Under the pieces are notes generated by a model. The model made no database searches. It saw nothing but the letters and a program-made list of their open reading frames with translations, and was not told the DNA's origin. Of a stretch of 64,000 nt of DNA, positions 17,629 to 62,757 are shown piece after piece. This stretch comes from Auanema rhodensis. Its lineage: Eukaryota > Animalia > Nematoda. The position numbers and the translations under genes were made by a program. Position 1 is the first letter of the stretch; each line of letters starts with the position of its first letter. The stretch covers positions 11,222,001-11,286,000 of the forward strand of contig OZ059897.1 of assembly GCA_964057225.1 (NCBI GenBank), given 5' to 3'.

Positions 17629-18311
17629 AGTAGAGAGCCGTGCAAAATTTACTAACCACGCCCCCAAACAGCTGTCAAAAACATACTTTTGGGGGCGTCA
17701 GCTGCTAAAAACATACTTTTGGGGCGCGTCAGCTGTCAAAAACATATTTTTGAGCGTCAGCTATTAAAATCATATTTTGGGATCATGGTTCATGGATTCT
17801 CCTTTTTTAAATTTAAAAATCAAATTTTAAATTTATTTTTTCAAATGTATGTATATGTTTTTAAATATTTTTAAATATATTAAGTAAAAATAAAAATTAT
17901 AAATTTTAAATATTTAAATTTTGAATATATAAATTTGTTTTTAAATTTTATTTATTTATTATATTTATTAATAATGTTTGTTTACTTATTTTGTTTATTT
18001 TTCATTGTATTGTGTTTGTATTGTTTTTATTTTAAAGAACAATAAAATTTATGATATGAAATACCAAAATTCAATGGAACACATATCGAAGGTTAATTCG
18101 ATAAGAACGATATGAAATACAAAATTTAATGGAACACATATCGAAGGTTAATTCGATAAGAACGACATTAAATTATTAATTTTTGAAATTACAAATTGTT
18201 ATTAATTATATTTATTCTAACAAGTAAAAGTTTCAAATTATAGTAAAAGATTAGTTTTAAACTTTATTTTACTAATATAACAATACAATAACTCTATAGA
18301 GCACACATTGA
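17629..18311 (+). repeat. Left terminal inverted repeat (internally deleted)
   Basis: Reverse complement of 31014-31808; contains ~30-bp CAGCTG repeats and 56-bp palindromic repeats. Confidence 0.92.
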
Positions 18312-21300
18312 GCACTAGGATTTGACTATGAAGAAATCAATCAACTTAGGTAATTTAACAATATTTTGAATTTATTTATACATATTTTTTTTTTTTTAGT
18401 AAACGTATAAAGTTTACCGAGGCTGGTGGGATCGAGCTCTGTGAGCTTACAGCACCCACTTTTAATAGTGGGCTCTCATCATCAGGGGTTTTTGAAATAA
18501 TAACCTTGGATGACAGTGATGAGTAAGCGATATTAAAAATTATAACAATTAGTTTTTTTCTTTTTTAAGAGAATGAAATCCCGCTACCCCATCAACCAGT
18601 GGAGGGCAAGTCGGATATGGAGCGACATTCAACGATGTCTGTAAAATAGAGGTGCGATCTTTTATTTACATATTATTTCATAATATATCTTTTGAAACAT
18701 GAAATTTTCTCTTGCTCCAATTGCATATTTTGAAAACATTTTGAAATTTATTTCTCTTTTTCAATTGCATACATGAAATTCTTTCTCTCTCATCTTTACA
18801 TTTCATCTCAATCTATATCTTTTATCAAACAAATTGCAAATATTTTGAAATTTATATATTCATTCTTTTGAACAGCATTCATCTTAAAATTTTTACATTT
18901 CATCTCACTATATATCTTTCTTTCAATCAATTTTGATTTCTTACAAATTATAAATATTTCAAACATTTTGAACTAGTAAAATAATAAAACACCATCTTGT
19001 CCTTCTCAATTATTTTAAAACATTTTTCGAACAACAATTTAAACATTTTAACAAATGTTTATAAAAGTTTTTTCAAAGTTGAAAAAAAAAACTTTATATT
19101 TAAAAATCAAATGCCATTTATTTTTAATAAAAGCATATAAAAATAATTTAAAGAAAAGTAAATTTATTAAAACTTATAAACAAAAATTATTTATAATTAA
19201 ATTAAAAGCGTATAACCATTATAAAAAGTGTGTATTATAGTGGTCACACCGACGCATAAAACGCACCGGTCGGTTCACCAACGTGGTCGTTAGATCGCTC
19301 ACGTTCCCACATTTGGAAACCATTAATGAGCCAATGCATGTTGTCATGCCGCGGTTATTTAATGAGTTTCTTGATCGGTGCCTTGCTGAAAGTGGTGTGC
19401 CAGATAAACAAAAAGCGCTATTTTGTCTATCAATAGAGCACCCATCCTTTGAAAAGGGATCCATATTTATGGATTTCCGTAGAAGGGAGCATTTGGATGG
19501 CGTTGCCATCATGAATCCCATCAGCAAGGTGCAGCAATCAAAGCGAGAGGCTGTAATTAGCCAGGCAATGAATATTGAAATGTATGTGTTTGATGAAAGA
19601 CCGGTGCAGCCAAGCTTGATGCCTGGTGAAGGTAGAGTTGGTTTCTATTTTGATGCCGAACTCAAAATACCTGGCACAATTGAAAACACTGACACTCATT
19701 GCCTGGCTAGAGCAGCAGTTGTGGGAATATGGAAAGCCGATGAAGAGGCAGCAGAAGATGTTATTGAGAAGCGGAGGATTGAAAATCTTTTTGTTGCCAA
19801 ATCAACCACATCATATCAATTTATTAAATAGGTGTGGCATTTCTTTACATTTACCAAATTATAATTTAAACCATTTAAATATTATTGCAAGTTGTAATAC
19901 AGACTATAAGTTTGTAGTATACGCTAGGCCACCTGGACAGCGTATGTACGCTATTCAGCGTATCTTTAATGAAACGGCTAGCAAAGTGGTAACACTAGGC
20001 TACCGAAATAATCATTATGACTATATTACAACTTGTAGTAGATCACAGCTTTTTTATGGTATTATATGCCAACACTGTAAATTATCTTACAAAACAGTGT
20101 TGCATAGATGTAAAGCCAAGTGTAAGAAATGCCACACCTTAAAATGTAATTCGATGGAAAATGTGGTTGAAAGTAGCATAAGATGTGATAGTTGTAGAGT
20201 TTTGTTTAAAACTCGTCAATGCTTTGACAGGCATATTAGAAAAACATGTCGAATGCTAAAGGTAATTTAAAAAATATATATAAAATTTTACAAGACTAAA
20301 TTCAGACATGTGAAAACTGTGATCATTATCACAGAGTACGTGCTGATAGACCGCACAATTGCAATGAGAAATTTTGCAAAAAGTGTGGTCAGACAAAGCC
20401 TGAAGATCATTCTTGTTGTTGGGTACCACCTAACGACAAGAAAAAGGATCAGTTAAAAAAGAGGCAAGAGAAATACAAGGTTTGTATTTAACATCTTTAC
20501 AAGTGTAATGCTTACTTGTTTAAGATTATATTTTATGACTTTGAAACGGTTGTGTTAAAAAACGGTACAAATGTTCATGAATATGCAGATGAACAATGGC
20601 CCAATATGGTTGTGTATAACAAATTTTGTGGAAGTTGTATAGATGCCAACTCATGTGAAAAATGCACAACCAAGGAGGGCCAGTTTGGGTATCAACAAGG
20701 TGATAGTGAATGGTCTGTAACAGATCGTCTCCTTGATTGGTTACTCAACTCTGTTGAGAATGATAATGCAATTTTGATAGCGCATAATGGTTCACGCTTT
20801 GACATACATTTCTTGGTGTCTAGGCTGATAAACCGTGGAATATATCCTGATCCAATTTTAAATGGGACCAAGATTATTAGCATGGTTGTCAAGCCTTTAA
20901 GAGGTCAAAAATTTAATCATTTATATTTTAAAGATAGTTATTTATTAGTGCCTTTACCCCTATCAGCGTTACCCAAGGCATTTGGTGTACCTGATATGAG
21001 TAAAGGACAGTTTCCTTACCTCTTTAACCATCCAATAAATTATGGCAAAGTGTTACCATCTTTACCACCAAAACAGTACTATTGTACTGCTAGAATGAAA
21101 GCAGAAGACCTAGCTTCATTCAATATTTGGTATGAAGAGCGTAATCAAAGAGCGTTTGATTTTACTGAAGAGCTTTTGGAATATTGTAGGACAGATGTCC
21201 GTATTTTAACCAACTGTATGAAAGTTTACATGAAGTTGGCAACCGCCACCACTGGCTGGAACCCTGTCATACAATGTATGACATTTGCCAGTTTCTCTTT

Positions 21301-22855
21301 ATTCCAGGCAAGTTTTTTAAAATACAAGCATTTTCAAAACTAGTATATTACAGTTGTAAATGAACCACATTAAAGAGAACCAAGTGGGTATTCTGCCCGA
21401 GACTGGTTATTATGCCGGTCAAAAGCAGAGTATAATAGCCATAAAGTATATAAAATGGCTAGAACAAGGATTGGGCCGCCCATAAATGCATAAGCTTAAT
21501 GGTGGTGAATTTGCAGTGAGAGTAGATGGCCATCGCTATCTACTCGATGCTTATGACCCCGTTGCCAATCATGGCTATGAGGTGAGTAATTTGTAATAAA
21601 TGTAAAAAATGTAAATTTTTGTAGATTAATGGTTGTATTTACCATGGTTGTCCCCAGTGCACCAACAAGAGCGCTATAGCACCAGCCAGAAATGGTGAAA
21701 CAATGGAAGAGGTAATTGTGACTTTTTAAATCATTTTAATTTGAAAATATTAGGTTTATGATAAAACCATGAAAAGGCTTGAAGCAATTCAAAGCCAAGG
21801 CATTAGTGTTACCACAGTGTGGGAGCACGAAATTAATGTACAAATTTCGGCCAATGAAGAAATGGCGAAATTTATGCGTGAAACAAATGTAGTTACACGC
21901 TTGGCACCTAGAGATGCCTTTACCGGTGGCCGCACCCAGACATATAAGCTTTTGGCACAAGCTTCGGATAGATACTCGCTCGAGTATGTGGACTTTTGTT
22001 CACTATATCCATATGTCACCGCTTTTGATGCCTACTACCCTGTAGGTAATTCCAAAGTGATTACTGAGGGTTTCAAAAGCTTAGAGGCATGCTGCCCGTA
22101 CAAGGGTCTAGTAAAATGTGACGTGCTTGCACCCACAAATTTGCTGTACCCTGTATTAGGCACACGTATTGGCGGTAAACTAATTTTTACAAACTGCCGC
22201 ACTTGTGCAGTCAAAAGTAAAAATGTAACATGTGAGCACCAAAATGATGTAAATGCTCGAAAACCGCATCTAACTGTGGCACATGTTGAGCTTGAGTGTG
22301 CCATACAACGTGGCTATAAAGTGCTTCATGTGCATCAGGTGTGGCACTGGGAAGAATGGCAACAAGGCGGCCTGTTTAAAGAGTTTGTACAAAAGTACAT
22401 AAAAATTAAACAAGAGGCGTCGGGCTGGCCAAAGCCAAACATGACAGAGCAAGAAAAGGTATGTTTTAATAAAAGTATCACATTAAATAGAATATTACAG
22501 GTGATATATCTCCAAGAACACGAGGAGAACACTGGTGTTGCTCTGGAGAGCAATAAAATTGAAAAGAATGCTGCCATGCGTAGCATTGCCAAACTGCAGC
22601 TAAATAGGTTTGTAAACTTTTTAAAACAATACATTACAAGTTTGCTTATAGTGTCTGGGGTAAAATGGGTCAAAGACCTGATAAAGCCCAAACCAAGATT
22701 ATTGGTGTTGAGGACCCAGAAATTGGTAGGATCATTACTGATCCTGCAAGGGAACTCACTGGGTTCAAAATTGTGGATAATGTTGCGTACTGCACAACAG
22801 TACCAGAGGATTCACACTTGGCACCACCGCCTTTTACAAACCTTTACACCTTTTA
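18312..22855 (+). pseudogene. pPolB: Protein-primed DNA polymerase B, multi-exon, with stops/frameshift and 3' truncation
   Basis: Exo I FYDFET, Exo II AHNGSRFD, KDS, KGQFPY, Exo III YCRTDV, GCIYHGC insert, GGRT, motif A DFCSLYP, motif B AKLQLNS|VWGK restored by splicing. Confidence 0.93.
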
Positions 22856-24130
22856 CTCTGCATAAACAATTGCATATAAGCCCTCTTGCGGCGTTTGTTG
22901 ACCAAATTCCAATTTCAAGGCTACATTACCTTGTCATATAACATCAAATAACTCTGACGAATGCACAGTAGGAGAAAGATCAAATACAAAAAATGTGAAA
23001 CCAGCTTTATACATTGCTGGTGTAATACCATTGGATGAATCTGTACGACCAAGTCCCAAACCTTCCAGCATGTCAATATATGATGTGGCATAGGAAGATC
23101 GCCATTCTAAATTATAAGGACGGGTAGGTATTACCCTATTGTTGAGCGTCAAGTATATATTTTTCAAATCAAACGGTTTAAAGTTGAATGGCGGATGTTT
23201 AAAAGTACCATTATAAGCGTGTGCGCCAACAAGACCTACTACAACACGTTTTGGTGTGTGAGACGTGAATAATATATTATTAGGTGAATCCAAGCGGCCT
23301 CCTTCTATGAAATAAGAGCGCATTTTCACTGATGTCATGGGGTAGTGTATTTGATCCTTTGCGAGTTTATCTTCTATTGCCATAGCTAATCCAGCGTTTA
23401 GATCAAACTCTTGAATGAGCAAATGTACATCGCTGATATCTACTTTCAAATTTGGAAACTCCTCCTTTGATGTAGTATCCTTGTTTTCATTATTCCAGCC
23501 TAGAGTGTCAATTAAAAAGTTATCACGGTTTGGATATGCAGTTAGCTCCATTTTTGAATAGTTTACAAACAGTCGCTCTTGATTAAATAGGTCGATACTG
23601 ACGGGAGCAGCCATCTCACACAATATGCCATTTTTTACAAGCGCTTGACGCGTTCTAAATCCAGCACTGGATGCATTATCTATATATCTATCAGCATAAT
23701 AGCCTGATATGGCAAGTTTGCTCTCTTTAACATCGTTGCTATACATTAAAATATTCTCGATATATGTTTTATAGGCATGATTCACGGTAGAGTCATACAC
23801 GCTAACATCACCAATTTTCAAATGATACGAATGTATTAAACTGGCAGCAAATTGTTGACATGGTGCAAAAACAAGGTTATCTGGTACTGGATCACCGTTT
23901 GTGGTTACAATTTTAAATTTTACATTCAACCAACATCTTCTCAGATTGAGGAATGATTTGGAATTTTGAGCTATAACAAATTCCCATGGTCCTTGAGGAA
24001 GAAACGTATTTTTCAAAGGGACTTGTACAGTACGAGTAGACTCTACACCTAATGCCGACGCTGGTATATCACCATAGTTGATATTAGGTAAAAGGGCTTG
24101 TGCTGATTTTGAATCTATCAATTTAGCCAT
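22855..24130 (-). CDS. Major capsid protein (double jelly-roll, PY), with a nonsense codon at 22934-22936 and a truncated C-terminus
   Basis: PKRVVVGLV...AYNG..K.PPFNF, GFTFFVFDL, GNVALKLEF...LYAIVYAE are typical of Polinton MCP. Confidence 0.9.
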
Positions 24131-24583
24131 ATAAATGTGAAACGACCGCTCACGAGTGATGCACAACCGCTTATGAGGTTTTATGGTTTTGCGTCGTCGC
24201 CGTTTGCCCAAGCCGGTAAGATCTCGTATAGCTTGCCGGCCGGCTGTTTTAAGAGTTTCCTTGATATTATCGTCTTTCAGCACCCCATCGACAATTTCAT
24301 TACCAGTTTTCAGCAACTGTCCGCCAAGAGGTGAACTTACAACTGGACTATTGCTTACAGCACTGGATAAGGCGTTTCTTCCGGCATTGATGAGATTTTG
24401 GGCTATAGGTGATTGAATGATGCGTGGTAGAAATGATGCCAGAGTTGCCAAAATACCACCCAAACCATGACCCCTCTGCATTCCACGTTGAAACATCATT
24501 CCGCTAAATGGGGCGCCACCCATTTGTTGATTTAAAAGTGTTGTCCATTGAATAGAGTTGACATCCAAAAGGAGGTGCGGCAT
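24131..24583 (-). CDS. Basic core protein (QRGHGLGG / adenain-cleavage motif family), in frame with MCP
   Basis: FSGMMFQRGMQRGHGLGGILATLASFL amphipathic segment, LTGLG, KRRRRK. Confidence 0.75.
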
Positions 24584-24634
24584 ATCGAACCGCACGCGCG
24601 CAACACAAAAGTTACACTAGATCATTCTACTAAA

Positions 24635-25090
24635 ATGTATTCGTCTGAAATAGTATCACTATTGCAATCTGTCCCCAGCACTCGGAAACTATTCCTCGGT
24701 GTATACAGCGCTGATACTCTACCCAAAACGCGTCGTAAAAACATTGCACTTGTCGTAAATACTGACACACTTGATAAGCCAGGCACACATTGGCAGGTCA
24801 TCTTTGTCCGTAACAAGCAAGCCTATTTTTTCTGTAGCTTGGGATATGAAATGAACAAGTACATTCAAAATTATCTGGCCAAATATAAAAAGGTAAAAAT
24901 AAATACTTGCAAACCACAACGTTTAATTAAATACACTTGTGGTGGCTATGTGGTATTTGTAATACTAATGTTGTCGGCTGGTAATTCATTTGAAAGCATT
25001 TGTTCATTTTTTAAACTATTGAAAAATGATGATGTCTTTATTAAAGCGTTTATGCATAAAGTATTCGACTATAAATTGGCTACTATATAA
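24635..25090 (+). CDS. Adenain-like cysteine protease
   Basis: FLGVYSAD, VVNTD...GTHW, Q...TCGGY catalytic His/Cys motifs. Confidence 0.92.
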   Translation: MYSSEIVSLLQSVPSTRKLFLGVYSADTLPKTRRKNIALVVNTDTLDKPGTHWQVIFVRNKQAYFFCSLGYEMNKYIQNYLAKYKKVKINTCKPQRLIKYTCGGYVVFVILMLSAGNSFESICSFFKLLKNDDVFIKAFMHKVFDYKLATI

Positions 25091-25131
25091 GAAATTTGTC
25101 ATTAATAACCTGCTACATTACGTGGTCAGTT

Positions 25132-25302
25132 ATGAATATTCCTTGTCACGGTGAATTATGTGTCAAATACACGTTGGAGCAATCTAAACCAGCGCCTTTA
25201 TACAGGAGAATGTTGAAATGTATTTCAGTGCCATTTATTAAAGGTATAGCATTGGGATTGGGCTTTTGTACAACACTAGTCATATTATTGCTCATTATAT
25301 AA
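25132..25302 (+). CDS. Small predicted membrane protein
   Basis: C-terminal hydrophobic helix PFIKGIALGLGFCTTLVILLLII; open in all four copies. Confidence 0.5.
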   Translation: MNIPCHGELCVKYTLEQSKPAPLYRRMLKCISVPFIKGIALGLGFCTTLVILLLII

Positions 25303-25343
25303 AAGTGGGTTGATTGCGTGTGGTCGTTTTTCATTTTCCTCTA

Positions 25344-25808
25344 ATGGAACTTTTATGTAACAAATATTGTGGTACATGCAAGGAAATATTTTCTTCAACC
25401 AAGCATTTTAGTGATCACGTTTTGAAAAGGCATGCAGGGATTCAACCCGTATGTAACAATCATATCAGCAATGCTGACTTTATTCAAAAATATGGACATT
25501 TGGATGGTGTTCGTAGACGTTTGTGCCCTCATTATAGTGCAACTTTTGGAACAAGATTCAATTGTGAGCGTCATATTCGGCGTATTCATAATAATAATGG
25601 AACGAATGGTGAAGATGGTGATGGAAATGATATCAGCAAACCCTTTGAAAAAGCTGAGGAGTTTGTACATTCAACCCAATCAAAAAGATGCCGCAGCAAT
25701 AGTGACGGAGAACATTCACAACACGAGCCGAGCGACAAACAAAACTGCCCTAAACTATCTTTTAAACCTTCGAAAATAAAAATGTGGTATTGTATAACTG
25801 TTGAATAA
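25344..25808 (+). CDS. Two-C2H2 zinc-finger protein
   Basis: CGTC...H...H and CPHC...F..RFNCERHIRRIH (second Cys pair mutated in this copy, intact in the others). Confidence 0.8.
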   Translation: MELLCNKYCGTCKEIFSSTKHFSDHVLKRHAGIQPVCNNHISNADFIQKYGHLDGVRRRLCPHYSATFGTRFNCERHIRRIHNNNGTNGEDGDGNDISKPFEKAEEFVHSTQSKRCRSNSDGEHSQHEPSDKQNCPKLSFKPSKIKMWYCITVE

Positions 25809-25813
25809 AACGT

Positions 25814-26674
25814 TTATTTCATATTTTTAACATGCAATGTAACAACTGTAGAACCATAATTAAATTGCATAGGACGACCAAATTCATCTAAAATTTCAAT
25901 ACGTATGGTATCGAGTGTTTGTCTAGTGATTGGTACATAACGAATAGGATTAAATGTTTTGGCAATCATTTTACCAAATTCAGTAGGAAGTGGTACAGGT
26001 AAACATGCAAGTAAATTAGCTTTCACATTACCAAGAATGGAATATTCTACAATATTCTACAATATCACAATATATATACATTGTATTAATGTTATTTGAA
26101 AAATCAATGGGACGCCTGGCTATTATTGTATCGTTCATGTTTTTATTTTCAAAACCAAGAAAATATGCAAAATCATCACCAAGCGTTGCATTCATTAATA
26201 GTCGCTTGCTTGTTACAAACTCTATGCGCTGCAATGTTTTGTTAAACTGAAATGTGGCATCTGCGAGCATTTCCTCCACTAGCTTAGCCTCAGCCTGGCG
26301 ATTATTATACCATTTTTTTACATCTTCATCTTTATCTATTAAACTTTTTATACGTGCTTCTTCCTCAGCTCCAAGAGGCTTTGTATTGTTGGCGATAAAT
26401 GATTCCCTTCCAGCATTGATTCCGCGTATTATTTCATCACCATTTGCATAGTTGCCTTTAGGCAAGTGCAGAATAAACTTTCTATTGGAAAAACGTAGTG
26501 TATAAGATAAATCTTTTTGAACATTGAACAAGGAAAAATGATGTCTGTCAGCCCAATGCAATACCTATTATTGCGTATCCTTAGTGTTTCAGGTAATCTG
26601 GTAAGAAACACTGATGATGTATTACTTTTTTCAGAGTCAACTGATGATGGAAGAGTAATGTAAAAATCATCCAT
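25814..26674 (-). pseudogene. Minor capsid/penton-like protein (PX), frameshifted in this copy
   Basis: MDDFYITLPS start, YIYCDIVE..I.G, LL..P, YVP, IRIEILDEFG, TLH end. Confidence 0.88.
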
Positions 26675-26753
26675 GACAAACCACCACTTGATACGTGTAC
26701 ACTACTGCAAATGAAATCATTTGCATTTTAGGTACATTTACGAGTGGTTGATT

Positions 26754-27401
26754 ATGGTTTTCAGCTTCAAACTACCCAGTCAGACAACAGTAATAGGTGC
26801 TACCCAATGCGGTAAAACAACCCTCATAAAGCACATATGTGAAAATACTGAAAAGTTTTTCAACGTCCCCATTGATAGAATATTCTGGTTCAGTCAATGT
26901 GGGTCATCGTCAGGTGTACCAATAAATGATGAGCGTTTAATAATTATTCAAGGGCCGCCTGATCCTGATTTGATAAAAGAACAAAAGGGAGTAAATACTA
27001 TACTAGTGCTGGATGATTTGATGAACTTTTTTTCATCGAATAAAGCAGCAAAGAAATTATTCAACAATATTTTTACAGTATGGGCTCATCACTGGAACTT
27101 GGCAGTGTTTAATCTTGTGCAAGCGGCATTTCAACTGGACAGGACCAGTCGGGTCAATAGTACATATATAATACTGATGAAAAGTCATTCAGATATATTA
27201 CAAATACGTAATTGTCTGCAGCAATTATTTGGGCCACGTTTCAAAAATGCTCTAGAGGCGTATGATGATGCAATGTCTACTCCCTATAGTCATTTACTGA
27301 TTGACAATCATCCTTTAACAAGTGAGAAGCAGCATATACTATCTTATATAACAGCGGAGAACCCTATTGTTTATGTTGCCAGAAATGTGTTTAGTGTTTA
27401 A
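26754..27401 (+). CDS. A32/FtsK-like DNA packaging ATPase
   Basis: Walker A GATQCGKTT, Walker B LVLDDL, HH..L, R.N..Y, PYSHLLID. Confidence 0.92.
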   Translation: MVFSFKLPSQTTVIGATQCGKTTLIKHICENTEKFFNVPIDRIFWFSQCGSSSGVPINDERLIIIQGPPDPDLIKEQKGVNTILVLDDLMNFFSSNKAAKKLFNNIFTVWAHHWNLAVFNLVQAAFQLDRTSRVNSTYIILMKSHSDILQIRNCLQQLFGPRFKNALEAYDDAMSTPYSHLLIDNHPLTSEKQHILSYITAENPIVYVARNVFSV

Positions 27402-27413
27402 AGTGCTTGTTCA

Positions 27414-27722
27414 ATGAGTGGTCGTATTTTGTCAAATTTCAACTTTTTGTCTTCTTGCGCCAAAACTCCTTGTTCTGTTCCCTCATTTTCTTTTGCACAA
27501 ATTGAAATTATTGTTGAAATTGTATTTAATATTGTGAAAAATAATAATTTTCTTTTAACTAACAAGGAATATAAAACCCTCTTGCCCATATCTTCATTAT
27601 TACGTCAAATAGCTTTGATACGCACACCAGAAAAGGCTAAATCATTATTGGCAACGCTTTCACACAAACAATTGAAAACAATAGTTACATGTGGTATTGC
27701 CTATTTTGGTTTTAAATCATGA
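27414..27722 (+). CDS. Conserved small Maverick protein (uncharacterised)
   Basis: IVEIVFNIVKNN...LT segment; located between ATPase and the next ORF; conserved in three copies. Confidence 0.7.
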   Translation: MSGRILSNFNFLSSCAKTPCSVPSFSFAQIEIIVEIVFNIVKNNNFLLTNKEYKTLLPISSLLRQIALIRTPEKAKSLLATLSHKQLKTIVTCGIAYFGFKS

Positions 27723-28435
27723 AGCTCAACCATAAATATCGACTAATTCCTGTCGACGAGGAAACAATTAATATAGACAAGTTTGATGCAGAGCTCAAGC
27801 TTTTACGAGAAAATAAAGCTATACCCGACTATAAAAAGGCTGAACTATACGAAGACTTGATTGCTCGTCTCAAAAACTACAGAGAAAGTATAGATGCGCC
27901 CATATCAGTACAAGTGGAAAATGCTGATCCACCTCTATTGCCAGAATACAAGTTGCCAAGAAAGTATAACAATTTGTGGGAGAAATTTCCAGAGGTGCGC
28001 ACAAACAAGAATAACCAACTTGTGATTAATAATGAGGCTGTACCAAACACCAATATTACAAAAATTTTAGATTTTGTATTGGATAAAACAAAAACGGAGC
28101 CCAATGGATTTTCAGTCTTGTCAAAGTTTTTAGCCAGTAAAGGCGTATCTAGTTCTAACAAGAAACAAACTAGAAGAGAGTCGCCTGACAATGATTCAGT
28201 TGACGTTGTAACTAGAGCTGAACCGGCTGTTACAGACTTGGACTCTACTATATTACCTAGAACGCCTCGTCATCGTAAAGCTGTTATTCGATATTCACCA
28301 TCACCGGTTCGTACACTCAAAAGTAAAAGGTCAAAGACTTTTGATACTGCCGCCGAATCATATTACACACCACAAGAAGGAGACTCACAGAATGGCCAAG
28401 GTCGTAAAAGGTTCTACATTCGATTATGGAAATGA
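27719..28435 (+). CDS. Conserved Maverick structural/core-type protein (uncharacterised)
   Basis: KYRLIP start, QLVINNEAVPNTNI, C-terminal QNGQG...W cleavage-type motif; ATGA overlap with upstream ORF. Confidence 0.75.
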   Translation: MKLNHKYRLIPVDEETINIDKFDAELKLLRENKAIPDYKKAELYEDLIARLKNYRESIDAPISVQVENADPPLLPEYKLPRKYNNLWEKFPEVRTNKNNQLVINNEAVPNTNITKILDFVLDKTKTEPNGFSVLSKFLASKGVSSSNKKQTRRESPDNDSVDVVTRAEPAVTDLDSTILPRTPRHRKAVIRYSPSPVRTLKSKRSKTFDTAAESYYTPQEGDSQNGQGRKRFYIRLWK

Positions 28436-29459
28436 TATTTTGGCGAGCATTTATTACGATATAAAACATCCAGCTTCATATACATCAGCCAAGAATTTAT
28501 TATCGCAAGCACGAAAACATGGCATTTCAAAGGTACAAGTCGATGATTTTTTGCAGGATTCTGAAACTTTTACACGGCATAAACCAACCAGAATGCGTAT
28601 GCAGACTAGAAAGACTAGAGGATGTGGTCGATTTCTAACAGTGCAAGCAGATTTGGTTGATATGCAAAAATATAAAAAATTAAACGACGGCTATGCTTAC
28701 ATGTTGACCATGATTGATGTTTATACACGCATGTTATATGTTAGGCCTTTGAAAACTAAAGGTGGTATAGAGGTTGCTAGTGCATTTGAAAATTTATTCA
28801 AGAATTTTATACCAATTCAGTTGATTACTGATAATGGCACAGAGTTTTATAATAGTCATTGTGAAAAACTATTCAAAAAGTTTGCCATACTGCACGGATC
28901 TACAAGTTCACCACAAAAGGCTGCAATGGTGGAGCGAGCAAATAGAACTTTAAAAACACGCATGATGAAATATCTCTATTACAAGAATAATCATCGTTGG
29001 ATTGATATCCTAGATGATTTGGTTGAAGGAATAAACAAATCTTATAACCGCTCCATAAAAATGCGGCCCATTGATGTTAAAGCAAATATATTCATTGAAG
29101 AATATGCACCAGCTGTTAAAAGCCGCTTTAAAATTGGTGATACTGTTCGCATAAGCAAAAATAGGCGTACTTTTGAAAAAAGCTACGAGTCTGGATATAC
29201 AATGGAGCTATTCACAATTGATGTGGTTGTAACCGGAAACCCAACCGTGTATAAACTTGTAGATTATAATGGTGAACGTATAAAGGGAATATTTTACGAA
29301 CCTGAACTTGTCTTGGCTACTAATAAAAGCAACCAGTACTATATAGAAAAAGTTTTAAAAGAGCGTACTCGAAGCGGTAAACGTCAAGTATTTGTAAAAT
29401 GGAGTGGATATCCCGACAACTTTAATGAATGGATAGATGCAGAAAATTTAAATGTATAA
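28390..29459 (+). CDS. Retroviral-like (c-)integrase with C-terminal chromodomain
   Basis: QADLVDM, IDVYTR, TDNGTEF, KAAMVERANRTLK, VFVKWSGYPD.FNEWI. Confidence 0.96.
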
Positions 29460-29751
29460 CTTTTCAATGTTATAAACAATTGTAATTATAATAAATGATC
29501 TATTTGATATATCGTATAATGTAACAATAAAAAACCAGCAAAATACAAACAACAATTCAACATGCAAAAAAAAAATGTAGACTATTCAAATTTTCAAATT
29601 CTTACCAGTTGGTTGATCATTCGTCCTCAATTGTTGAGCCATTGATGGATATTCGCAAGGGCTGGAAAAAAATGTTACGGCTGAGAATATAAAAATACCA
29701 CATAACAAAACAAGAATAAAACGCCAATTGTACTATTTGTGCTTGTTGTAG

Positions 29752-30336
29752 TCAAAATGAAGGATCAAAGCGGATAAACATGTTCAGGTTGAGTGCTTCT
29801 GGACTTATTTTAAAGTAGAATACATTCTGTTTATAACCAAAAGTCTTTACAGTAGCCTCATCTGCATATATAACAATATAGCCCATATTGTTCAACAATT
29901 GTTTGCACGGCATGGTGTTATAAGAGCGCATCGAAAAAATGATAAAATTGAAAATAAATAAATATGCAAGCTTACATTAATAGAGAAATTTTCGGGCTTA
30001 TAGTGACAAAATTCCTTCAAAAGACCCAACGCATCATTCCTTCCTCTACACTTTATACAGAGGCTGAAACAGTGATACTCGTCTATAACCTGCAATGATT
30101 CCCTACAAGTTTTGCAGAGACAAATTGGTCTCATTAATACACTCCTTGGTGGAGTGCTCTCTCTCAGAATTTCCATCTGCTTTATTGGTGAATCTAAATT
30201 AAAGATTTAAAAAATACAAGTTATGGTTCATACCAAAACTTGTAAAATTTGGAGCTGGTGTGGGTGGTCGTGGTATTTCAGGTTCAGGCGATTTGCGCAC
30301 AACATTTGTCACATCAGCAAGTACAGCACGCTTCAT
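29752..30336 (-). CDS. Spliced Maverick accessory gene: D-box + CDK sites + Cys-rich zinc-binding domain
   Basis: Three exons reconstructed by hand; protein conserved with the diverged copy at 57003-57596. Confidence 0.7.
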
Positions 30337-30960
30337 TTCCGCTAAAGATCCAACTTTCTAAAATATAAGGCAAACTTGCAGAGAGGAGCAGTCTATGGCG
30401 ATTGACGAAGAGTAGCAGAAGATGGTGAAACGTCGGATCCTCGGATAGTTGGCAGAGCTGAAATGTAAATGTAGCAAAATTGCCAACCTTTTATACAAAG
30501 ATTTTTGTAAAGTACAACCCATTGTGTTACAATCAAGTTTGCTGATGAAATTCTTTTATTAATTAGATTTTACAGCATATTTATGCAGATATGCTCATCT
30601 CATCGACAGTTGCCAGCAGTTCGCGCACTCTGAACCTGTAAACAATCTGCATATTAATTAGTTTTTACATCTCTTTAAACATTATTGTTTACCGTTTGTG
30701 CCATAAACAACAGCCATCTCTGTAAAACATTTACGCTTTTTAAACTTTGCTTAATAGCTCATATATTATTCATAGTATACCTTTAAACCCATATTGTAGC
30801 ACAAAACATATGAGTGCCAACGTTTTATATGTGAAAAATATTTCATTCTTGAATATTTACTAATGATTATATTACGAAACTAAAACTTTTGAAATGTTAA
30901 AATGATTATACTATATTTGAACCCCCACAGTGCAGTTATTAGTGTTTATTAACCATCGAT

Positions 30961-31808
30961 ATGCGTGGCGTTGAAGTCAGCGCAACTGTTTGTTAATCTT
31001 ATTGTATTTACCTTCAATGTGTGCTCTAGTTAGTTATTGTATTGTTATATTAGTAAAATAAAGTTTAAAACTAATCCTTTATTATAATTTGAAACCTTTA
31101 CTTGTTAGAATAAATATAATTAATAACAATTCACAATTTCAAAAATTAATAATTTAATGTCGTTCTTATCGAATTAACCTTCGATATGTGTTCCATTAAA
31201 TTTTGGTATTTCATATCGTTCTTATCGAATTAACCTTCGATATGTGTTCCATTAAATTTTGGTATTTCATATCGTTCTTATCGAATTAACTTTCGATATG
31301 TGTTCCATTGAATTACCCATAACAAGTACGGTGAACAAAACGATATACATGCAAAAATTTTATTGTTCTTTAAAATACAAATAAAATAGTACAAACACAA
31401 TACAATAAAAAATAATCAAAATAAGTAAACAAACATTATTAATAAATATAATAAATAAATAAAATTTAAAAACAAATTTATATATTTAAAATTTAAATAT
31501 TTAAAATTTATTATTTTTATTTTTACTTAATATATTTAAAAATAATTAAAAACATATACATACATTTGAAAAAAACAAATTTAAAATTAAAAAAAAAAAT
31601 CATGCTTTAAATCATGATTTTTAAATTTAAAAAAGGAGAATCCATGAACCATGATCCCAAAATATGATTTTAACAGCTGACGCTCAAAAATATGTTTTTG
31701 ACAGCTGACGCGCCCCAAAAGTATGTTTTTAGCAGCTGACGCCCCCAAAAGTATGTTTTTGACAGCTGTTTGGGGGCGTGGTTAGTAAATTTTGCACGGC
31801 TCTCTACT
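30961..31808 (-). repeat. Right terminal inverted repeat (~850 bp)
   Basis: Matches the left-arm TIR copy at ~47891-48715 and the reverse complement of 17629-18311. Confidence 0.9.
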
Positions 31809-34313: not shown

Positions 34314-34341
34314 AACTTCTTTTTTTTCAATCAAAAGATCT

Positions 34342-35500: not shown

Positions 35501-35788
35501 TAAATTTTTTTTTCTTTTTTTTTTTTTTTTTTTTTTTTTTGGAAATACCCGGTCCTAATGGACCTTTATTTTTCTTGTGCTCAAGTAAGTTTATACAATC
35601 CGACAAAGTATGGAGCGAGACCAAAAGATTGAGGAACAGTTAAGTTATGAGTAGATATTAAATAGTTAGCAACAAGTTTACATAGATTAGAAGTAAAGCA
35701 GATGTCTACAAGTAATGAAAGAGCACGAGTGAGGGCAAACTCAGGTGTGTCGACTTCGCGTTCGGTGTGAAGCAGAAGAGCGGCGACC

Positions 35789-35998
35789 ATGAATTCGTCA
35801 CGTGAAAGGCGAGATCCTCGAAAGTTGTGTCCTAAGAAGTACACTTCAAGAAACGGCATTGAATACAGAGCTATAAAGGCATGGAATTCCTTACCTGAGA
35901 ACCTAATTGAGCAAACAAAAATCGGAAGCTTCAAAAAACACCTCTACAATGCCGTACGAGGCTCACAACATGATCCTTCCACATTTTTATGTAGTTAA
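35789..35998 (+). pseudogene. LINE (CR1/L2-like) ORF2 C-terminal remnant
   Basis: R.IKAWNSLP......SFKKHL tail motif. Confidence 0.55.
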
Positions 35999-37492: not shown

Positions 37493-37502
37493 TATATATA
37501 TA

Positions 37503-38759: not shown

Positions 38760-38788
38760 CAGATCTTTTGATTGAAAAAAAAAGAAGT

Positions 38789-39412: not shown

Positions 39413-39488
39413 TGTTTTCTGAATTTTTGTAGTTTGTCTTCTCAGATATAAGGGTTTCTAGTGGGTGCCCGACTTTCATCGCACATGA

Positions 39489-55281: not shown

Positions 55282-57002
55282 AGTAGAGAGCCATGCCGAA
55301 TTTACTAGCCACGCCCCCAAACAGTTGCTAAAAACATACTTTTGAGGGCGTCAGCTGCTAAAAACATACTTTTGGGGGCGTCAGCTGTCAAAATCATATT
55401 TTCAGCGTCAGCTGTCAAAAATATAATTTTCCTCCCGAGGCAGGCTCTCGAGCCTGCACATGGATCAAAGTGCATGATTTTTTTAAAATCTTTTTTAAAA
55501 TTATTTTTTAATGTATTATTTTAAATGAATTTTTATTATTTATATATTTGTTAATTGTATTTGTAAATATTTTTAAAATTATTTCTTTTTAAATGTATTT
55601 TTAATATTTATATATGTTTTAAATATTATTATTTAATTATTTCTTTTTAAATATATTTCTAATAATATTTCTTTTTAAATGTATTTTAATATTTATATAT
55701 TTTTTAATTGTATCTTTAAAACTGAATAAAATATTTCTCATATATATTGTTTTTTATATATTTAAATATTTTTAAAAAGTAATCAATATGTTCACCGTAC
55801 CTCTTATGGGTTACTCAATGGAACTCATATCGAAGGTCAATTCGATAAGAAGTACTAAATATTTAAACTAAATTTAATGAAACACATATCGAAGGTTAAT
55901 TCGATAAGATCGTTAAAACAGGTGCACTACACATGGCAAAAGTTGTGTTCATAAAAATATGATAAATAGCTGTACACCATATGTACACATAACGCTAAAG
56001 AATACTTACTATGCCAAGGGGTCATGAGTATATACGAAAATTTTCAAATTTTTTAACATCAAAAATGTTACTTTAAAGTAATTGTTGTTGTAGCCCTAAT
56101 AGTTTATAAATGTTCTGAGAGGTAATGTATTTCATAACTATGTTCAAGAATAGAATAAATGTTTCGTAATATATTTATTGAACAATAAATTTTCATTTAA
56201 AATTAGAACATGTGTTAACATTTTGTAAGAGTTTCTTTTTTACAAAATGTCTGGAAATGTTGTACTTGTAATCGGATGTGTACAAGTCTGTTTTTCGCAA
56301 CAATCCTGCGTTTCCTCAGTGGGATCCAACATTTTGAATTAGTGTTTCCTGAAAATAAGAGTGTACCACAGCTGTTATAATAAGAATATGAATACAATAT
56401 TAAACGATCCTATTGTAATCTTCCACAATTTTGGATGACAGTTGTTATTGTATAGGGACTTGTCACAAATGAGTTGAATTATTGTTAAATATTTGTATTT
56501 ACGAAGTCGAATGCTGTAACAAGTAATTAATAAGCGGATAGTTTACAGGTTGTTAATCCGGCAACTGTTGGCGCAATCGGTGTATTTTAGCGCATTTGGC
56601 AGCTGTTTGCGCAACAAACTGCTAATTAATGTATAAATGCATATATTTGTTGTAATATATAACAAATAGAAAAGCCGCATACAGCAGTCAACTGTTTTGT
56701 GAAAGAGGTGGAGTGGGTAGAGATTTACAACAAAGTTTGTATAAAAGGTGGCAAAATTTTTTTGACCGAAATTTGCATTTCAGCTCCGCCAACAAGTCGA
56801 CTCTACGATCCAGTTCTGTCAACAAGTCTACTCTCCGATCCAGCTCCGCCACCAAGTTTTCTCGCCGATCCACCTCTGCCAACAAGTCGACGATCTGATC
56901 CAACGTCAACAGACTGCTGCTAGGACTTTTCTCTACTCTACTTGGACCCTAGACGTAAAAGTTTGTTGTTGTTTAGGAAAAGCCTCCAATTGGGCTACAA
57001 AC

Positions 57003-57596
57003 ATGAAGCGTTCCGCTCTTGTTGATGTAGAGAATATTGTACCTTCGACACCGGAACCGGATGTTCCACGATCACCCACACCAGGACCCAACTTTGCTGC
57101 CACATTCTTTGGTAAGGTTTTATTTTTGTTATCAATTATTTTTTGTTTAGACACACCAAAAAAGCAGGTACAAATCTCAAAGGATAGCTCTCCACAACAG
57201 CCTGTAGTTATGAGACCAATATGTCTCTGCAAAACTTGTAGGGAAACATTGCAAGTCGTAGACGAGTACCACTGTTTCAGCCTCTGTGTCAAGTGTAGAG
57301 CGAGGAATGATGCCTTAGGGCTTTTAAAAGTTTTCCGTCATTATAAACCTGAAAATTCAACAATCAATGTAGGATTATAAAATTATTAATTCTAATTATT
57401 ATTTTTTCTTTTACAGATGCGTTCTTATTCTAGCATGTCATCAACACAATTGTTGAATAATATGGGTTACATTGCCATTTATACTGATGAGTCAACTGTC
57501 AAGTCTTTTGGTTATAAGCAGAATGTGTTCTACTTTAAATTAAGTCAACAGGCGCTCAACTTGAATATGCTTATCCGTTTTGATCCATCGTTTTGA
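57003..57596 (+). CDS. Spliced D-box/Cys-rich accessory gene, divergent allele
   Basis: MKRSALVDVEN...F|DTPKK...CLCKTC...CFSLCVKC...STIN|MRSY...RFDPSF*. Confidence 0.72.
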
Positions 57597-57892
57597 CTAC
57601 AACAAGCACAAACTGTTTAATGGACAGTTGGTTGATTTTGTTGTGTTATATTTAAATTTTCTTAGCCGTAACATTTTTTTTCCAGCTCTTGAAGTTTGAA
57701 ATTATCCATCAACAGCCGACTCTCAAACCAACTGGTAAGCATTGAAAATTTAAATATTAATCAGTTTATAATTATAGGTTATATCATTGTCTTGGCTTTT
57801 ATGTTTTGCTGGTTTTTTATTGTTACAATATGAACGATTGATCAAATAAATCATTTATTATTAATACAATTGTTTACAACAACAGTGAAAAA

Positions 57893-58960
57893 TTATACAT
57901 TTAAATTTTCTGCATCTATCCATTCATTAAAGTTGTCGGGATAGCCACTCCGTTTCACAAATACTTGGCGTTTACCATTTCGTGTACGCTCTTTCAAAAC
58001 TTTCTCAATATAGTACTGGTTGCTTTTATTAGTAGCCAACACAAGTTCAGGCTCATAAAATATTCCCTTTATACGTTCACCATTATAATCTACAAGTTTA
58101 TACACGGTTGGGTTCCCGGCTACAATCTCATCAATTGTGAATAGTTCCATTGTATATCCAGACTCGTAACGTTTTTCAAAAGTACGCCTGTTCTTGCTTA
58201 TGCGAACATTATCACCAATTTTGAATCGGTTGCGAACAGCTGGTGCATATTCTTCAACGAATATATTTGCTGTAACATCTACGGGGCGCATTTTAATCGA
58301 CCGATTATAAGATTTGTTTATTCCTTCGACCAAGTCATCTAGTATATCAATCTATCGATGATTATTCTTGTAATAGAGATATTTCATCATGCGTGTTTTT
58401 AAAGTTCTATTTGCTCGCTCCACCATTGCAGCCTTTTGTGGTGAACTTGTAGATCCGTGCAGTATGGCAAACTTTTTGAATAGTTTTTCACAATGATTAT
58501 TATAAAACTCTGTGCCATTATCAGTAATCAACTGAATTGGTATAAAATTCTTGAATAAACTTTCAAATGCACTAGCAACCTCTATACCACCTTTAGTTTT
58601 CAAAGGCCTAACATTTAACATGCGTGTATAAACATCAATCATGGTCAACATGTAAGCATAGCCGTCGTTTAATTTTTTATATTTTTGCATATCAACCAAA
58701 TCTGCTTGCACTGTTAGAAATCGACCACATCCTCTAGTCTTTCTAGTCTGCATACGCATTCTGGTTGGTTTATGCCGTGTAAAAGTTTCAGAATCTTGCA
58801 AAAAATCATCAACTTGTACCTTTGAAATGCCATGTTTTCGTGCTTGCGATAATAAATTCTTGGCTGATGTATATGAAGCTGGATGTTTTATATCGTAATA
58901 AATGCTCGCCAAAATATCATTTCCATAATCTAATGTAGAACCTTTTACGACCTTGGCCAT
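57893..58960 (-). pseudogene. Maverick integrase with a TGG>TAG stop at 58352-58354
   Basis: Same motifs as 28390-29459. Confidence 0.92.
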
Positions 58961-59633
58961 TCTGTGAGTCTCCTTCTCGTGGTGTGTAATATGATTCGGC
59001 GGCAGTATCAAAAGTTTTTGACCTTTTACTTTTGAGTGTACGAACCGGTGATGGTGAATATCGAATAACAGCTTTACGATGACGAGGCGTTCTAGGTAAT
59101 AGAGTAGAGTCCAAGTCTGTAACAGCCGGTTCAGCTCTAGTTACAACGTCAACTGAATCATTGTCAGCCGACTCTCTTCTAGTTTGTTTCTTGTTAGAAC
59201 TAGATACGCCTTTACTGGCTAAAAACTTTGACAAGACTGAAAATCCATTGGACTCCGTTTTTGTTTTATCCAATACAAAATCTAAAATTTTTGTAATATT
59301 GGTGTTTGGTACAGCCTCATTATTAATCACAAGTTGGTTATTCTTGTTTGTGCGCACCTCTGGAAATTTCTCCCACAAATTGTTATACTTTCTTGGCAAC
59401 TTGTATTCTGGCAATAGAGGTGGATCAGCATTTTCCACTTGTACTGATATGGGCGCATCTATACTTTCTCTATAGTTTTCGAGACGAGCAATCAAGTCTT
59501 CGTATAGTTCAGCCTTTTTATAATCGGGTATAGCTTTATTTTCTCGTAAAAGCTTGAGCTCTGCATCAAACTTGTCTATATTAATTGTTTCCTCGTCGAC
59601 AGGAATTAGTCGATATTTATGGTTGAGCTTCAT
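58917..59633 (-). CDS. Maverick ORF238 copy
   Basis: Near-identical to 27719-28435. Confidence 0.8.
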   Translation of the reverse strand: MKLNHKYRLIPVDEETINIDKFDAELKLLRENKAIPDYKKAELYEDLIARLENYRESIDAPISVQVENADPPLLPEYKLPRKYNNLWEKFPEVRTNKNNQLVINNEAVPNTNITKILDFVLDKTKTESNGFSVLSKFLASKGVSSSNKKQTRRESADNDSVDVVTRAEPAVTDLDSTLLPRTPRHRKAVIRYSPSPVRTLKSKRSKTFDTAAESYYTPREGDSQNGQGRKRFYIRLWK

Positions 59634-59950
59634 GATTTAAAACCAAAATAGGCAATACCACATGTAACTATGGTTTTCAATTGTTTGTGTGAAAGCGTTG
59701 CCAATAATGATTTAGCCTTTTCCGGTGTGCGTATCAAAGCTATTTGACGTAATAATGAAGATATGGGCAAGAGGGTTTTATATTCCTTGTTAGTTAAAAG
59801 AAAATTATTATTTTTCACAATATTAAATACAATTTCAACAATAATTTCAATTTGTGCAAAAGAAAATGAGGAAACAGAACAAGGAGTTTCGGCGCAAGAA
59901 GACAAATAGTTGAAATTTGACAAAATACGACCACTCATTAAACAAGCACT

Positions 59951-60597
59951 TTAATCACTAAACACATTTCTGGCAACATAAACAATAGGGTTCTCCGCTG
60001 TTATATCAGATAGTATACGCTGCTTCTTACTTGTTAAAGGATGATTGTCAATCAGTAAATGACTATAGGGAGTAGACATTGCATCATCATACGCCTCTAG
60101 AGCATTTTTGAAACGTGGCCCAAATAATTGCTGCAGACAATTACGTATTTCTAAAATATCTGAATGACTTTTCATCAGTATTATATATGTACTATTGATT
60201 CAACTGGTCCTGTCCAGTTGAAATGCCGCTTGCACAAGATTAAACACTGCCAAATTCCAGTGATGTGCCCACACTGTAAAAATGTTGTTGAGTAATTCCT
60301 TTGCTGCTTTATTCGATGAAAAAAAGTTCATCAAATCATCCAGCACTAGTATAGTATTTACTCCCTTTGTTCTTTTATTAAATCAGGATCAGGAGGCCCT
60401 TGAATAATTATTAAACGCTCATCATTTATTGGTACACCTGACGATGATCCACATTGACTGAACCAGAATATTCTATCAATGGGGACGTTGAAAAACTTTT
60501 CAGTATTTTCGCATATGTGCTTTATGAGGGTTGTTTTACCGTATTGGGTTGCCCCTATTACAGTTGTCTGACTGGGTAGTTTGAAGCTGAAAACCAT
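59951..60597 (-). pseudogene. Packaging ATPase copy, disrupted
   Basis: Split ORFs matching 26754-27401. Confidence 0.88.
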
Positions 60598-60676
60598 AAT
60601 CAACCACTCGTAAATGTACCTAAAATGCAAATGATTTCATTTGCAATAGTGTACACGTATCAAGTGGTGGTTTGTC

Positions 60677-61527
60677 ATGGATGATTTTTACATTACTCTT
60701 CCATCATCAGTTGACTCTGAAAAAAGTAATACATCATCAGTGTTTCTTACCAGATTACCTGAAACACTAAGGCTACGCAATAATAGATATTGCATTGGGC
60801 TGACAGACATCATTTTTCCTTGTTCTATATTAAATGTTCAAAAAGATTTATCTTATACACTACGTTTTTCCAATAGAAAATTTATTCTACACTTGCCTAA
60901 AGGCAACTATGCAAATGGTGATGAAATAATACGCGGAATCAATGCTGGAAGAGAATCATTTATCGCCAACAATACAAAGCCTCTTGGAGCTGAGGAAGAA
61001 GCACGTATAAAAAGTTTAATAGATAAAGATGAAGATGTAAAAAAGTGGTATAATAATCGCCAGGCTGAGGCTAAGCTAGTGGAGGAAATGCTCGCAGACG
61101 CCACATTTCAGTTTAACAAAACATTGCAGCGCATAGAGTTTGTAACAAGTAAGCGGCTATTGTTGAATGCAACACTCGGTGATGCTCTCGCATATTTTCT
61201 TGGTTTTGAAAATAAAAACATACAATAATAGCCAGGCGCCCCATTCATTTTTCAAATAACATTAATACAATGTATATATATTGTGATATTGTAGAATATT
61301 CCATTCTTGGTAATGTGAAAGCTAATTTACTTGCATGTTTACCTGTACCACCTCCTACTGAATTTGGTAAAATGATTGCCAAAACATTTAATCCTATTCG
61401 TTATGTACCAATCACTAGACAAACACTCGATACCATACGTATTGAAATTTTAGATGAATTTGGTCGTCCTATGCAATTTAATTATGGTTCTACAGTTGTT
61501 ACATTACATGTTAAAAATATGAAATAA
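60677..61527 (+). pseudogene. Minor capsid copy, small deletion near 61221
   Basis: MDDFYITLPS...TLHVKNMK. Confidence 0.88.
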
Positions 61528-62250
61528 ACGTTTTATTCAACAGTTATACAATACCACATTTTTATTTTCGAAGGTTTAAAAGATAGTTTAGGGCAGTTTT
61601 GTTTGTCGCTCGGCTCGTGTTGTGAATGTTCTCCGTCACTATTGCTGCGGCATCTTTTTGATTGGGTTGAATGTACAAACTCCTCAGCTTTTTCAAAGGG
61701 TTTGCTGGTATCATTTCCATCACCATCTTCACCATTCGTTCCATTATTATTATGAATACGCCGAATATGACGCTCACAATTGAATCTTGTTCCAAAAGTT
61801 TCACTACAATGAGGGCACAAACGTCTACGAACACCATCCAAATGTCCATATTTTTGAATAAAGTCAGCATTGCTGATATAATTGTTACATATGGGTTGAA
61901 TCCCTGCATGCCTTTTCAAAACGTGATCACTAAAATGCTTGGTTGAAGAAAATATTTCCTTGCATGTACCACAATATTTGTTACATAAAAGTTCCATTAG
62001 AGGAAAATGAAAAACGACCACACGCAATCAACCCACTTTTATATAATGAGCAACAATATGACTAGTGTTGTACAAAAGCCCAATCCCAATGCTATACCTT
62101 TAATAAATGGCACTGAAATACATTTCAACATTCTCCTGTATAAAGGCGCTGGTTTAGATTGCTCCAACGTGTATTTGACACATAATTCACAGTGACAAGG
62201 AATATTCATAACTGACCACGTAATGTAGCAGGTTATTAATGACAAATTTC

Positions 62251-62706
62251 TTATATAGTAGCCAATTTATAGTCGAATACTTTATGCATAAACGCTTTAA
62301 TAAAGACATCATCATTTTTCAATAGTTTAAAAAATGAACAAATGCTTTCAAATGAATTACCAGCCGACAACATTAGTATTACAAATACCACATAGCCACC
62401 ACAAGTGTATTCAATTATGCGTTGTGGTTTGCAAGTATTAATTTTTACCTTTTTATATTTGGCCAGATAATTTTGAATGTACTTGTTCATTTTATATCCC
62501 AAGCTACAGAAAAAATAGGCTTGCTTGTTACGGACAAAGATGACCTGCCAATGTGTGCCTGGCTTATCATGTGTGTCAGTATTTACGACAAGTGCAAAGT
62601 TTTTACGACGCGTTTTGGGTAGAGTATCAGCGCTATATACACCGAGGAATAGTTTCCGAGTGCTGGGGACAGATTGCAATAGTGATACTATTTCAGACGA
62701 ATACAT
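62251..62706 (-). CDS. Adenain-like protease copy
   Basis: Protein identical to the 54475-54930 copy. Confidence 0.9.
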   Translation of the reverse strand: MYSSEIVSLLQSVPSTRKLFLGVYSADTLPKTRRKNFALVVNTDTHDKPGTHWQVIFVRNKQAYFFCSLGYKMNKYIQNYLAKYKKVKINTCKPQRIIEYTCGGYVVFVILMLSAGNSFESICSFFKLLKNDDVFIKAFMHKVFDYKLATI

Positions 62707-62757
62707 TTTAGTAGAATGATCTAGTGTAACTTTTGTATTGCGCGCGTGCGGTTCGAT

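Follow-up and report, generated by a model that had tools for sequence, protein, structure and literature searches.

Nematode Mavericks are known to carry cargo, intron-containing genes that lie between a terminal repeat and the integrase, and two cargo families, wasp and krma, have been described (Widen et al., 10.1101/2022.07.12.499685). In that description the cargo slot is 2-5 kb long, has a high GC content and is poorly conserved between otherwise near-identical elements, the KRMA kinase has 430 aa, WASP is a protease, and the elements carry a gB-like fusogen. The Oncoid proteins of adintoviruses, which are of the E1A/E7 type, are small accessory proteins with short cell-cycle motifs beside paired CxxC, and are encoded terminally, upstream of PolB, with transcription directed inward (PMC8502044). 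The destruction box (D-box) has the consensus RxxLx[D/E][hydrophobic]xN[N/S], in which N/S at P10 and a small, unbranched residue at P3 are preferences, not requirements (PMC5717348). In cyclin B and securin, the RxxLx[D/E]ØxN motif lies in an N-terminus of low complexity, close to lysines and S/T-P sites (PMC5717348; 10.1101/2023.12.12.571338). In Emi1 the order is D-box, linker and Cys-rich region, and the pseudo-substrate inhibitors described so far rely on more than one degron or on an LRRL tail (PMC5717348). D-box-dependent turnover works in nematodes, as reported for IFY-1, FZR-1 and CYE-1 (10.1101/2023.12.12.571338; PMC12124362), and the proteins of animal viruses include both regulators and substrates of APC/C (PMC7307157; PMC3390409). 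No description of a destruction box in a Maverick or Polinton was found among the titles and abstract openings of the literature, the supplements of which could hold such an annotation, and a term look-up in PMC10748475 returned nothing relevant to one.

The window, the whole 64-kb stretch of DNA analysed here, is filled by a cluster of mobile elements. Two Mavericks, each with a cargo gene next to one terminal repeat, were mapped in it:

17629..31808: Maverick element A, 14.2 kb, delimited by TIRs and a 6-bp target-site duplication
28392..29459, plus strand: Maverick integrase of element A, with rve and chromo domains (Pfam), convergent with the cargo gene
55282..64000, minus strand, running off the window: Maverick element B, its core 92-100% identical to that of A and its repeat-plus-cargo arm far more diverged
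57003..57596, plus strand: gene B, the cargo gene of element B, with introns at 57112-57150, 57238-57280 (optional) and 57369-57416 and a D-box match at 57009-57035

The features by which Mavericks/Polintons are recognised are all found in element A. The TIRs (17629-18311 and 31014-31808) share 82% identity and are flanked on both sides by an identical 6-mer, a 6-bp target duplication being the rule for Mavericks. The element encodes a pPolB, present in pieces (Pfam PF03175 on 20606-21343 and 21769-22941), a retrovirus-like integrase, a capsid-like ORF, an adenain-like protease and an ATPase, with weak Pfam matches for Peptidase_C5 and the ATPase. On the basis of this gene set, element A was identified as a Maverick. 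The nearest named matches of its integrase came from Auanema, with 69% identity across 59% of the query, and from Caenorhabditis, with 41-46%; the shortness of the cargo gene's introns also fits a nematode, the probable host. For wider comparison, 91 other integrase-bearing loci were used, namely the best 80 of 477 metagenome integrase matches and all 11 viral ones, which with an integrase identity of 33-43% are not close relatives; the capsid, ATPase and protease module of element A had tblastn matches in 35, 27 and 41 of these, respectively.

The stretch from the integrase to the right repeat yielded a single gene, the cargo gene of element A (gene A), which is transcribed inward from the repeat. 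It resembles wasp and krma in being intron-bearing and in occupying the repeat-integrase slot, which is again poorly conserved between otherwise near-identical elements. However, the slot is only about 1.6 kb long (29459-31014) with a GC content of 0.31-0.34 in the covering bins, the encoded protein has 166-168 aa and carries a degron instead of a recognisable enzyme, and a gB-like fusogen was not detected among the ORFs of element A (Pfam; unspliced frames). No family or protein match linked the gene to the WASP protease or the KRMA kinase. Its sequence features place the gene among the nematode Maverick cargo genes already known as a class, where it forms a putative new family, set apart from WASP and KRMA by the searches and by length. 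It would represent a third type of nematode Maverick cargo, expressed, selected and exchanged as a repeat-plus-cargo arm.

The gene at 57003 had been taken by the first-pass annotation for a diverged allele. It is instead the cargo gene of a second element, inverted relative to A and 27 kb away, and the status of an allele was rejected as the two genes are old variants lying on near-identical element cores. Core identity between A and B ranged from 92 to 100% per 250-base bin. Synonymous differences amounted to 0.00-0.09 in the core ORFs and likewise in the 5' half of the integrase, but reached 0.26 in the 3' half of the integrase and 0.56 in the cargo gene; the boundary thus falls within the integrase itself (pS of 0.018 in the 5' half and 0.259 in the 3' half). 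This contrast makes it most likely that the repeat-plus-cargo arm was swapped by recombination between two Maverick subfamilies. Both elements are damaged, with pPolB in pieces in A and an interrupted integrase in B.

The structure of gene A, all on the minus strand, was resolved by comparison with gene B and with RNA contigs:

30487..30499: TATA-like box; an identical 13-mer lies upstream of gene B at 56736-56748
30234..30336: coding part of exon 1, with the D-box and a Pro-rich S/T-P linker (RNA contigs, copy comparison)
30304..30330: D-box match RAVLADVTN, P1-P9 (copy comparison; consensus of PMC5717348)
30194..30233: intron 1, 40 nt, GT-AG (joint in runs X2 and X3, loose end in X1)
30107..30193: exon 2, with the SPIK/TPPR linker and the first three Cys (RNA contigs, copy comparison)
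30064..30106: exitron, 43 nt, optional, within the Cys module; coding if retained, frameshifting if removed
29976..30063: exon 3, with the distal half of the Cys module (only in the retained frame, pS 0.80 and pN 0.10)
29932..29975: last intron, 44 nt, with a non-canonical acceptor in genomic copy A (joint in X1 and X2 with exactly these ends)
29752..29931: last exon, 59 codons, predicted with low confidence to form an alternating helix/strand unit (dN/dS 0.083; pLDDT about 50)

The TATA-like 13-mer may be a promoter element, as judged from the sequence. It matched only twice in the window (shuffle mean 0.39, with 8 of 100 shuffles reaching two matches), a count to be read knowing that the pattern was picked after it had been seen.

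The RNA evidence consists of contigs from five runs (X1-X5) of two studies, four of which, all from one study, are only presumed to be RNA. These four runs have a depth of 3-7. Contigs of X1, X2, X3 and X5 aligned to gene A and contigs of X2, X3, X4 and X5 to gene B; isoform ratios and the level and place of expression are not derivable from contigs. Both predicted introns were joined in contigs of both copies, in agreement with the splicing proposed earlier: intron 1 in X2 and X3 (gene A) and X2 (gene B), and the last intron in X1 and X2 (gene A) and X2 and X5 (gene B). One 800-nt X2 contig joined all three introns of gene B. The absence of RNA cover over the integrase, the ATPase and most core genes was not used as evidence, since the runs had been found via the cargo gene.

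In copy A, the acceptor of the last intron is non-canonical in the window, yet the contigs join exactly there. The contigs differed from the window at a few coding sites, and the four non-synonymous sites checked all gave the residue of the other copy; differences from B-type contigs were left out of the comparison on A. Taken together, these observations suggest that the transcripts probably stem from less damaged copies or strains, and that the window copies carry private damage. It is also possible that the acceptor of copy A reflects an assembly error, or an unusual acceptor that is really used. Most differences between the RNA contigs and copy B over 56793-57720 were transitions of a single type and on a single strand (6 of the 7 listed for X2), perhaps a sign that the genomic copy has decayed with a strand bias. 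RNA editing was considered as the source of these T>C differences and was ruled out, as a spliced sense contig carries them. In the 3' UTR of gene A, an X2 contig also skips the 44 nt at 29560-29603, which are not bounded by GT-AG; this is either a deletion variant or an artefact.

A third GT-AG intron of 43 nt, overlooked in the first-pass annotation, lies inside the Cys module at 30064-30106 in gene A and 57238-57280 in gene B. It was spliced in three of the five runs (X1 and X2 for gene A, X4 as an A-type loose end, and X2 for gene B), was retained whole in a B-type X5 contig from which the last intron had been removed, and was entered for 29 nt by an A-type X3 contig lacking intron 1, an overlap below the 31-letter bridging rule. 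Retention gives a protein of 166 (A) or 168 (B) residues. Removal shifts the frame and leads to an early stop, leaving 66 (A) or 77 (B) residues that comprise the D-box and the S/T-P linker; this stop lies 77 (A) or 50 (B) nt before the last junction, and the new C-terminus of the short form is unconserved, with the stop after 3 codons in A and 13 in B. The CLCKTC-x10-HCFSLC.KC module noted previously is present in both copies but is encoded in only one of the two isoforms; in the retained isoform of both copies all six shared Cys are kept, with two CxxC.

Identity between A and B was 88% in the 43-nt segment, compared with 56-60% in the true introns. In the retained frame, the segment had a pS of 0.40 and a pN of 0.053 (dN/dS 0.097; p = 0.02). 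This purifying selection, together with the high identity, indicates that the long form is what selection keeps. The 43-nt segment is thus an exitron: a GT-AG intron in coding sequence that is stop-free if retained and is spliced out of only some transcripts. Around its ends, none of 12 codons had a synonymous difference, versus 34 of 97 elsewhere; when matched for degeneracy, P was 0.02 at this window size and 0.04-0.14 at five other sizes, which gives modest support to selection on the exitron's splice sites. Local gene conversion could also explain the missing synonymous differences. The core ORFs (7,224 nt) contained one similar GT..TTTCAG pair at a spacing of 37-55 nt.

The exitron recalls E1A, in which alternative splicing (13S/12S) removes a zinc module. 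Unlike in E1A or Oncoid, the splice in the cargo gene shifts the frame and the motif points to APC/C, not Rb. Another parallel is the frameshifting exitron of Drosophila Or88a, where an optional intron in a coding exon is likewise conserved between diverged copies and its removal destroys the long product (PMC10990081); the exitron described here differs in lying in a mobile element, in being apparently often removed and in leaving a degron-bearing stub. A conserved frameshifting exitron would be a form of post-transcriptional control that genome-only annotation misses.

The proposal that this is a genuine Maverick accessory gene was borne out, as the gene is spliced, transcribed and under purifying selection. 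Over 161 codons of the retained frame, dN/dS between the copies was 0.146 (Fisher p = 2e-17). The other reading frames were rejected as candidates, having a dN/dS of about 1-2 and stops. Constraint was uneven along the gene: dN/dS was 0.27 in exon 1 (first 29 codons), 0.61 in exon 2, where selection was not significant (p = 0.37), and 0.07 in the C-terminal two thirds. In the 59 codons of the last exon, 21 synonymous and 14 non-synonymous differences were counted, in line with the earlier statement that its differences are largely synonymous or conservative.

The N-termini MKRAVLADVTN at 30336 (minus strand) and MKRSALVDVEN at 57003 (plus strand) are both present as reported. Residues 3-11 form a strong D-box match that is conserved between the copies (n = 2 sequences) and lies in a Pro/Ser/Thr/Glu-rich, low-complexity stretch (the first 54 residues) with nearby lysines. 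P1, P4, P6, P7 and P9 agree with the consensus and are identical in both copies, whereas the free positions P2, P3, P5 and P8 all differ, an arrangement with a probability of 1/126 if the identities fell at random among the nine positions. As exon 1 also keeps 11 of its 19 non-motif residues, the conservation of the five motif residues is in itself no more than modestly unusual. P10 is V or I and not N/S, and P3 is V (branched) in copy A and A in copy B. The model, of low confidence, has no secondary structure in residues 1-35. Exon 1 further contains an E/DxxR that resembles a separase site and would at most be a putative one.

The bare RxxL is common, with 573 occurrences in the window, but the extended motif RxxLx[DE]ØxN matched only twice in the six frames of the window, both times in the cargo genes. 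In 200 block shuffles, the mean was 0.49 matches for the whole window and 0.05 for matches no more than 11 residues from a Met, and 120 integrase homologues (43,345 residues) had none. The motif was not enriched in the 91 other Polinton-like loci (2 matches versus 4.2 in 12 shuffles).

The SP/TP clusters described downstream of the motif were recovered in part: SPIK and TPPR occur in copy A and TPKK in copy B, but TPPR is a full CDK consensus in A only, and just one site has the full consensus in both copies. Four S/T-P positions are kept between the copies, three of them as S/T swaps, against a background of 0.27 per 100 residues, although such counts are inflated in a Pro-rich linker. Neither LxCxE nor CR1 occurs in any exon of either copy, which, with the position at the integrase end instead of upstream of PolB, separates the gene from the Oncoids (PMC8502044). 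From cyclin B and securin it differs in its P10, in the absence of cyclin or securin homology and in being encoded by a mobile element.

No homologue of exons 1-3 of gene B was found by a word search of 5.8 billion proteins (1 candidate, none at E<=0.1), nor of the last exon among the longer proteins of that search (15 candidates, none at E<=1). A HMMER profile of the Cys module and the last exon, without exon 1, had no match at E<=0.001 among 1.84 billion representatives, and viral contigs and metagenome contigs contained no homologue. Seven segments of the gene matched no Pfam family at E<=10, PHROGs gave only two weak matches (E 0.09 and 0.39), and NCBIfam and PDB sequences gave none. In the 91 integrase-bearing loci no exon match was better than E 0.08; an 8/10 match in one locus (L001) was rejected, being a piece of PolB. 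Eukaryotic spliced genes are poorly covered by the collections searched, so these negatives show rarity and not uniqueness. Two AlphaFold2 models, both of which contain intron-derived residues, had pLDDT values of 38 and 40, too weak for use, and the fold searches with the second (none at E<=0.001, none at Z>=2) are uninformative at that pLDDT.

The cargo gene is spliced, transcribed and conserved, has two splice forms and occupies the repeat-to-integrase slot. For its function, the reading we prefer, to which we give about an even chance, is that of a likely APC/C substrate with two off-switches, a degron and an exitron, present mainly in S/G2. The low-complexity N-terminus would serve as a control arm, in which the D-box would be read by FZY-1/FZR-1 with APC10, nearby lysines would take ubiquitin and the four conserved S/T-P sites could allow tuning by CDK. 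The Cys module is predicted to bind zinc and, with the last exon, to form the working domain, the target of which would most likely be a host nuclear or cell-cycle protein, as for the early proteins of small DNA viruses. Destruction by APC/C at the end of each division would restrict the protein largely to S/G2 of dividing cells, and removal of the exitron, by decay or by yielding the 66/77-residue stub, would lower the long form as a second off-switch. The benefit to the element might be activity while host replication supplies are available, with low toxicity otherwise. The gene touches on the question of how integrated Mavericks time their activity and meet host cells; if its D-box is functional, it would tie a Maverick directly, and in a way that is easy to test, to the cell-cycle machinery of the host.

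Several other explanations were weighed. The D-box may be a chance match in the disordered N-terminus of a functional cargo gene whose role resides in the Cys and C-terminal part, without cell-cycle timing. The concentration of constraint in the C-terminal two thirds rather than exon 1 fits this, as do the comparison of two sequences only, the P10 mismatch and the shuffle expectation for the window, many windows having been scanned; but the match sits at residues 3-11 of a verified gene, where the copies agree at the five consensus positions and differ at the four free ones, and we regard chance as unlikely. The decoy suggested in the first-pass annotation fared less well. On that reading, the long or the short form would act as an APC/C decoy or inhibitor, delaying mitotic exit or holding an S-like state for replication of the element. 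The order of D-box, linker and Cys module is that of D-box, linker and zinc-binding region in Emi1, the short form joined in three of the five runs is almost purely D-box and S/T-P, and several animal viruses are described as regulating APC/C. A hexamer in the last exon also matches the loose ABBA pattern and is kept in both copies. Against this, the described inhibitors Emi1, Acm1 and BubR1 add KEN, ABBA or LRRL elements to the D-box (PMC5717348), whereas the cargo gene has a single degron: neither copy contains KEN, the C-terminus is DPSF and not an LRRL tail, and the Cys region is without a Pfam match. The ABBA reading of the hexamer was rejected, as it fails the strict Fx[ILV][FY]x[DE] at P1 (I, not F) and lies in a predicted strand. 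Lysines adjoin the D-box, the C-terminal residues newly encoded in the short form are unconserved and contig depth is low, so that a decoy appears quite improbable. The coupling to host germline division that was put forward along with it is speculative. A related proposal, which we consider slightly more improbable still, is a one-gene, two-product switch in which retention of the exitron would give a zinc-module effector destroyed by APC/C and its splicing a D-box/CDK peptide of 66-77 residues competing for APC/C; if true, the Maverick would both sense and manipulate mitotic exit of its nematode host.

The cargo might also be a selfish toxin/antidote-type gene like WASP, with the D-box confining a harmful product to a single period in the embryo or the germline. 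The slot and intron-bearing structure shared with wasp and krma, the exchange of the arm between elements and a double negative control that would suit a toxic product speak for this; the lack of any protease or kinase family sign, a length far below that of KRMA and the finding of no second gene in the slot make it very unlikely. Equally doubtful is a reading in which a newly colonised host splices out the 43 nt cryptically and without selection, or in which the splice is host silencing, the gene being mostly inactivated by now and its D-box a legacy of function in a past host. The splice sites can be explained by Cys-Arg and Cys-Phe-Ser codons, a similar pair occurs in the core ORFs, both window elements are damaged and horizontal transfer of nematode Mavericks is documented (10.1101/2022.07.12.499685). 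However, both diverged versions use the same exitron sites, the synonymous sites at its ends are over-conserved (P 0.02-0.14) and the transcribed copies look cleaner than those in the window.

Other mobile elements and ORFs in the window were recorded. An LTR retroelement at 2033-13647 (plus strand), with LTRs 99.8% identical, has an unusual gag-env-pol order: an ORF with a class III (gB/Monjiviricetes-type) fusion domain (7880-9532) lies between gag and the aspartyl protease and precedes RT-RNaseH-integrase. An inverted duplication of 1.8 kb and 98% identity (33702-39416) holds a Tc1/mariner-like HTH ORF (33273-34370). Further partial, rearranged Maverick pieces lie at 39820-48721 and 53423-55281; the piece starting at 39820 consists of the repeat arm of element A followed by a jump to the integrase start, so that the cargo gene and the greater part of the integrase are lost. 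The ORF at 22934-24583 (minus strand) has, in A as well as in B, a Gly-rich amphipathic, Arg-rich N-terminal part in frame with the capsid-like part, with a weak match to Pardaxin (E 0.04). A small C2H2-like zinc-finger ORF with weak Pfam matches lies in the capsid module at 25344-25808 (plus strand), with copies at 44188, 53757 and 61533, the last of which (61533-61997) is covered by RNA contigs of X2 and X3.
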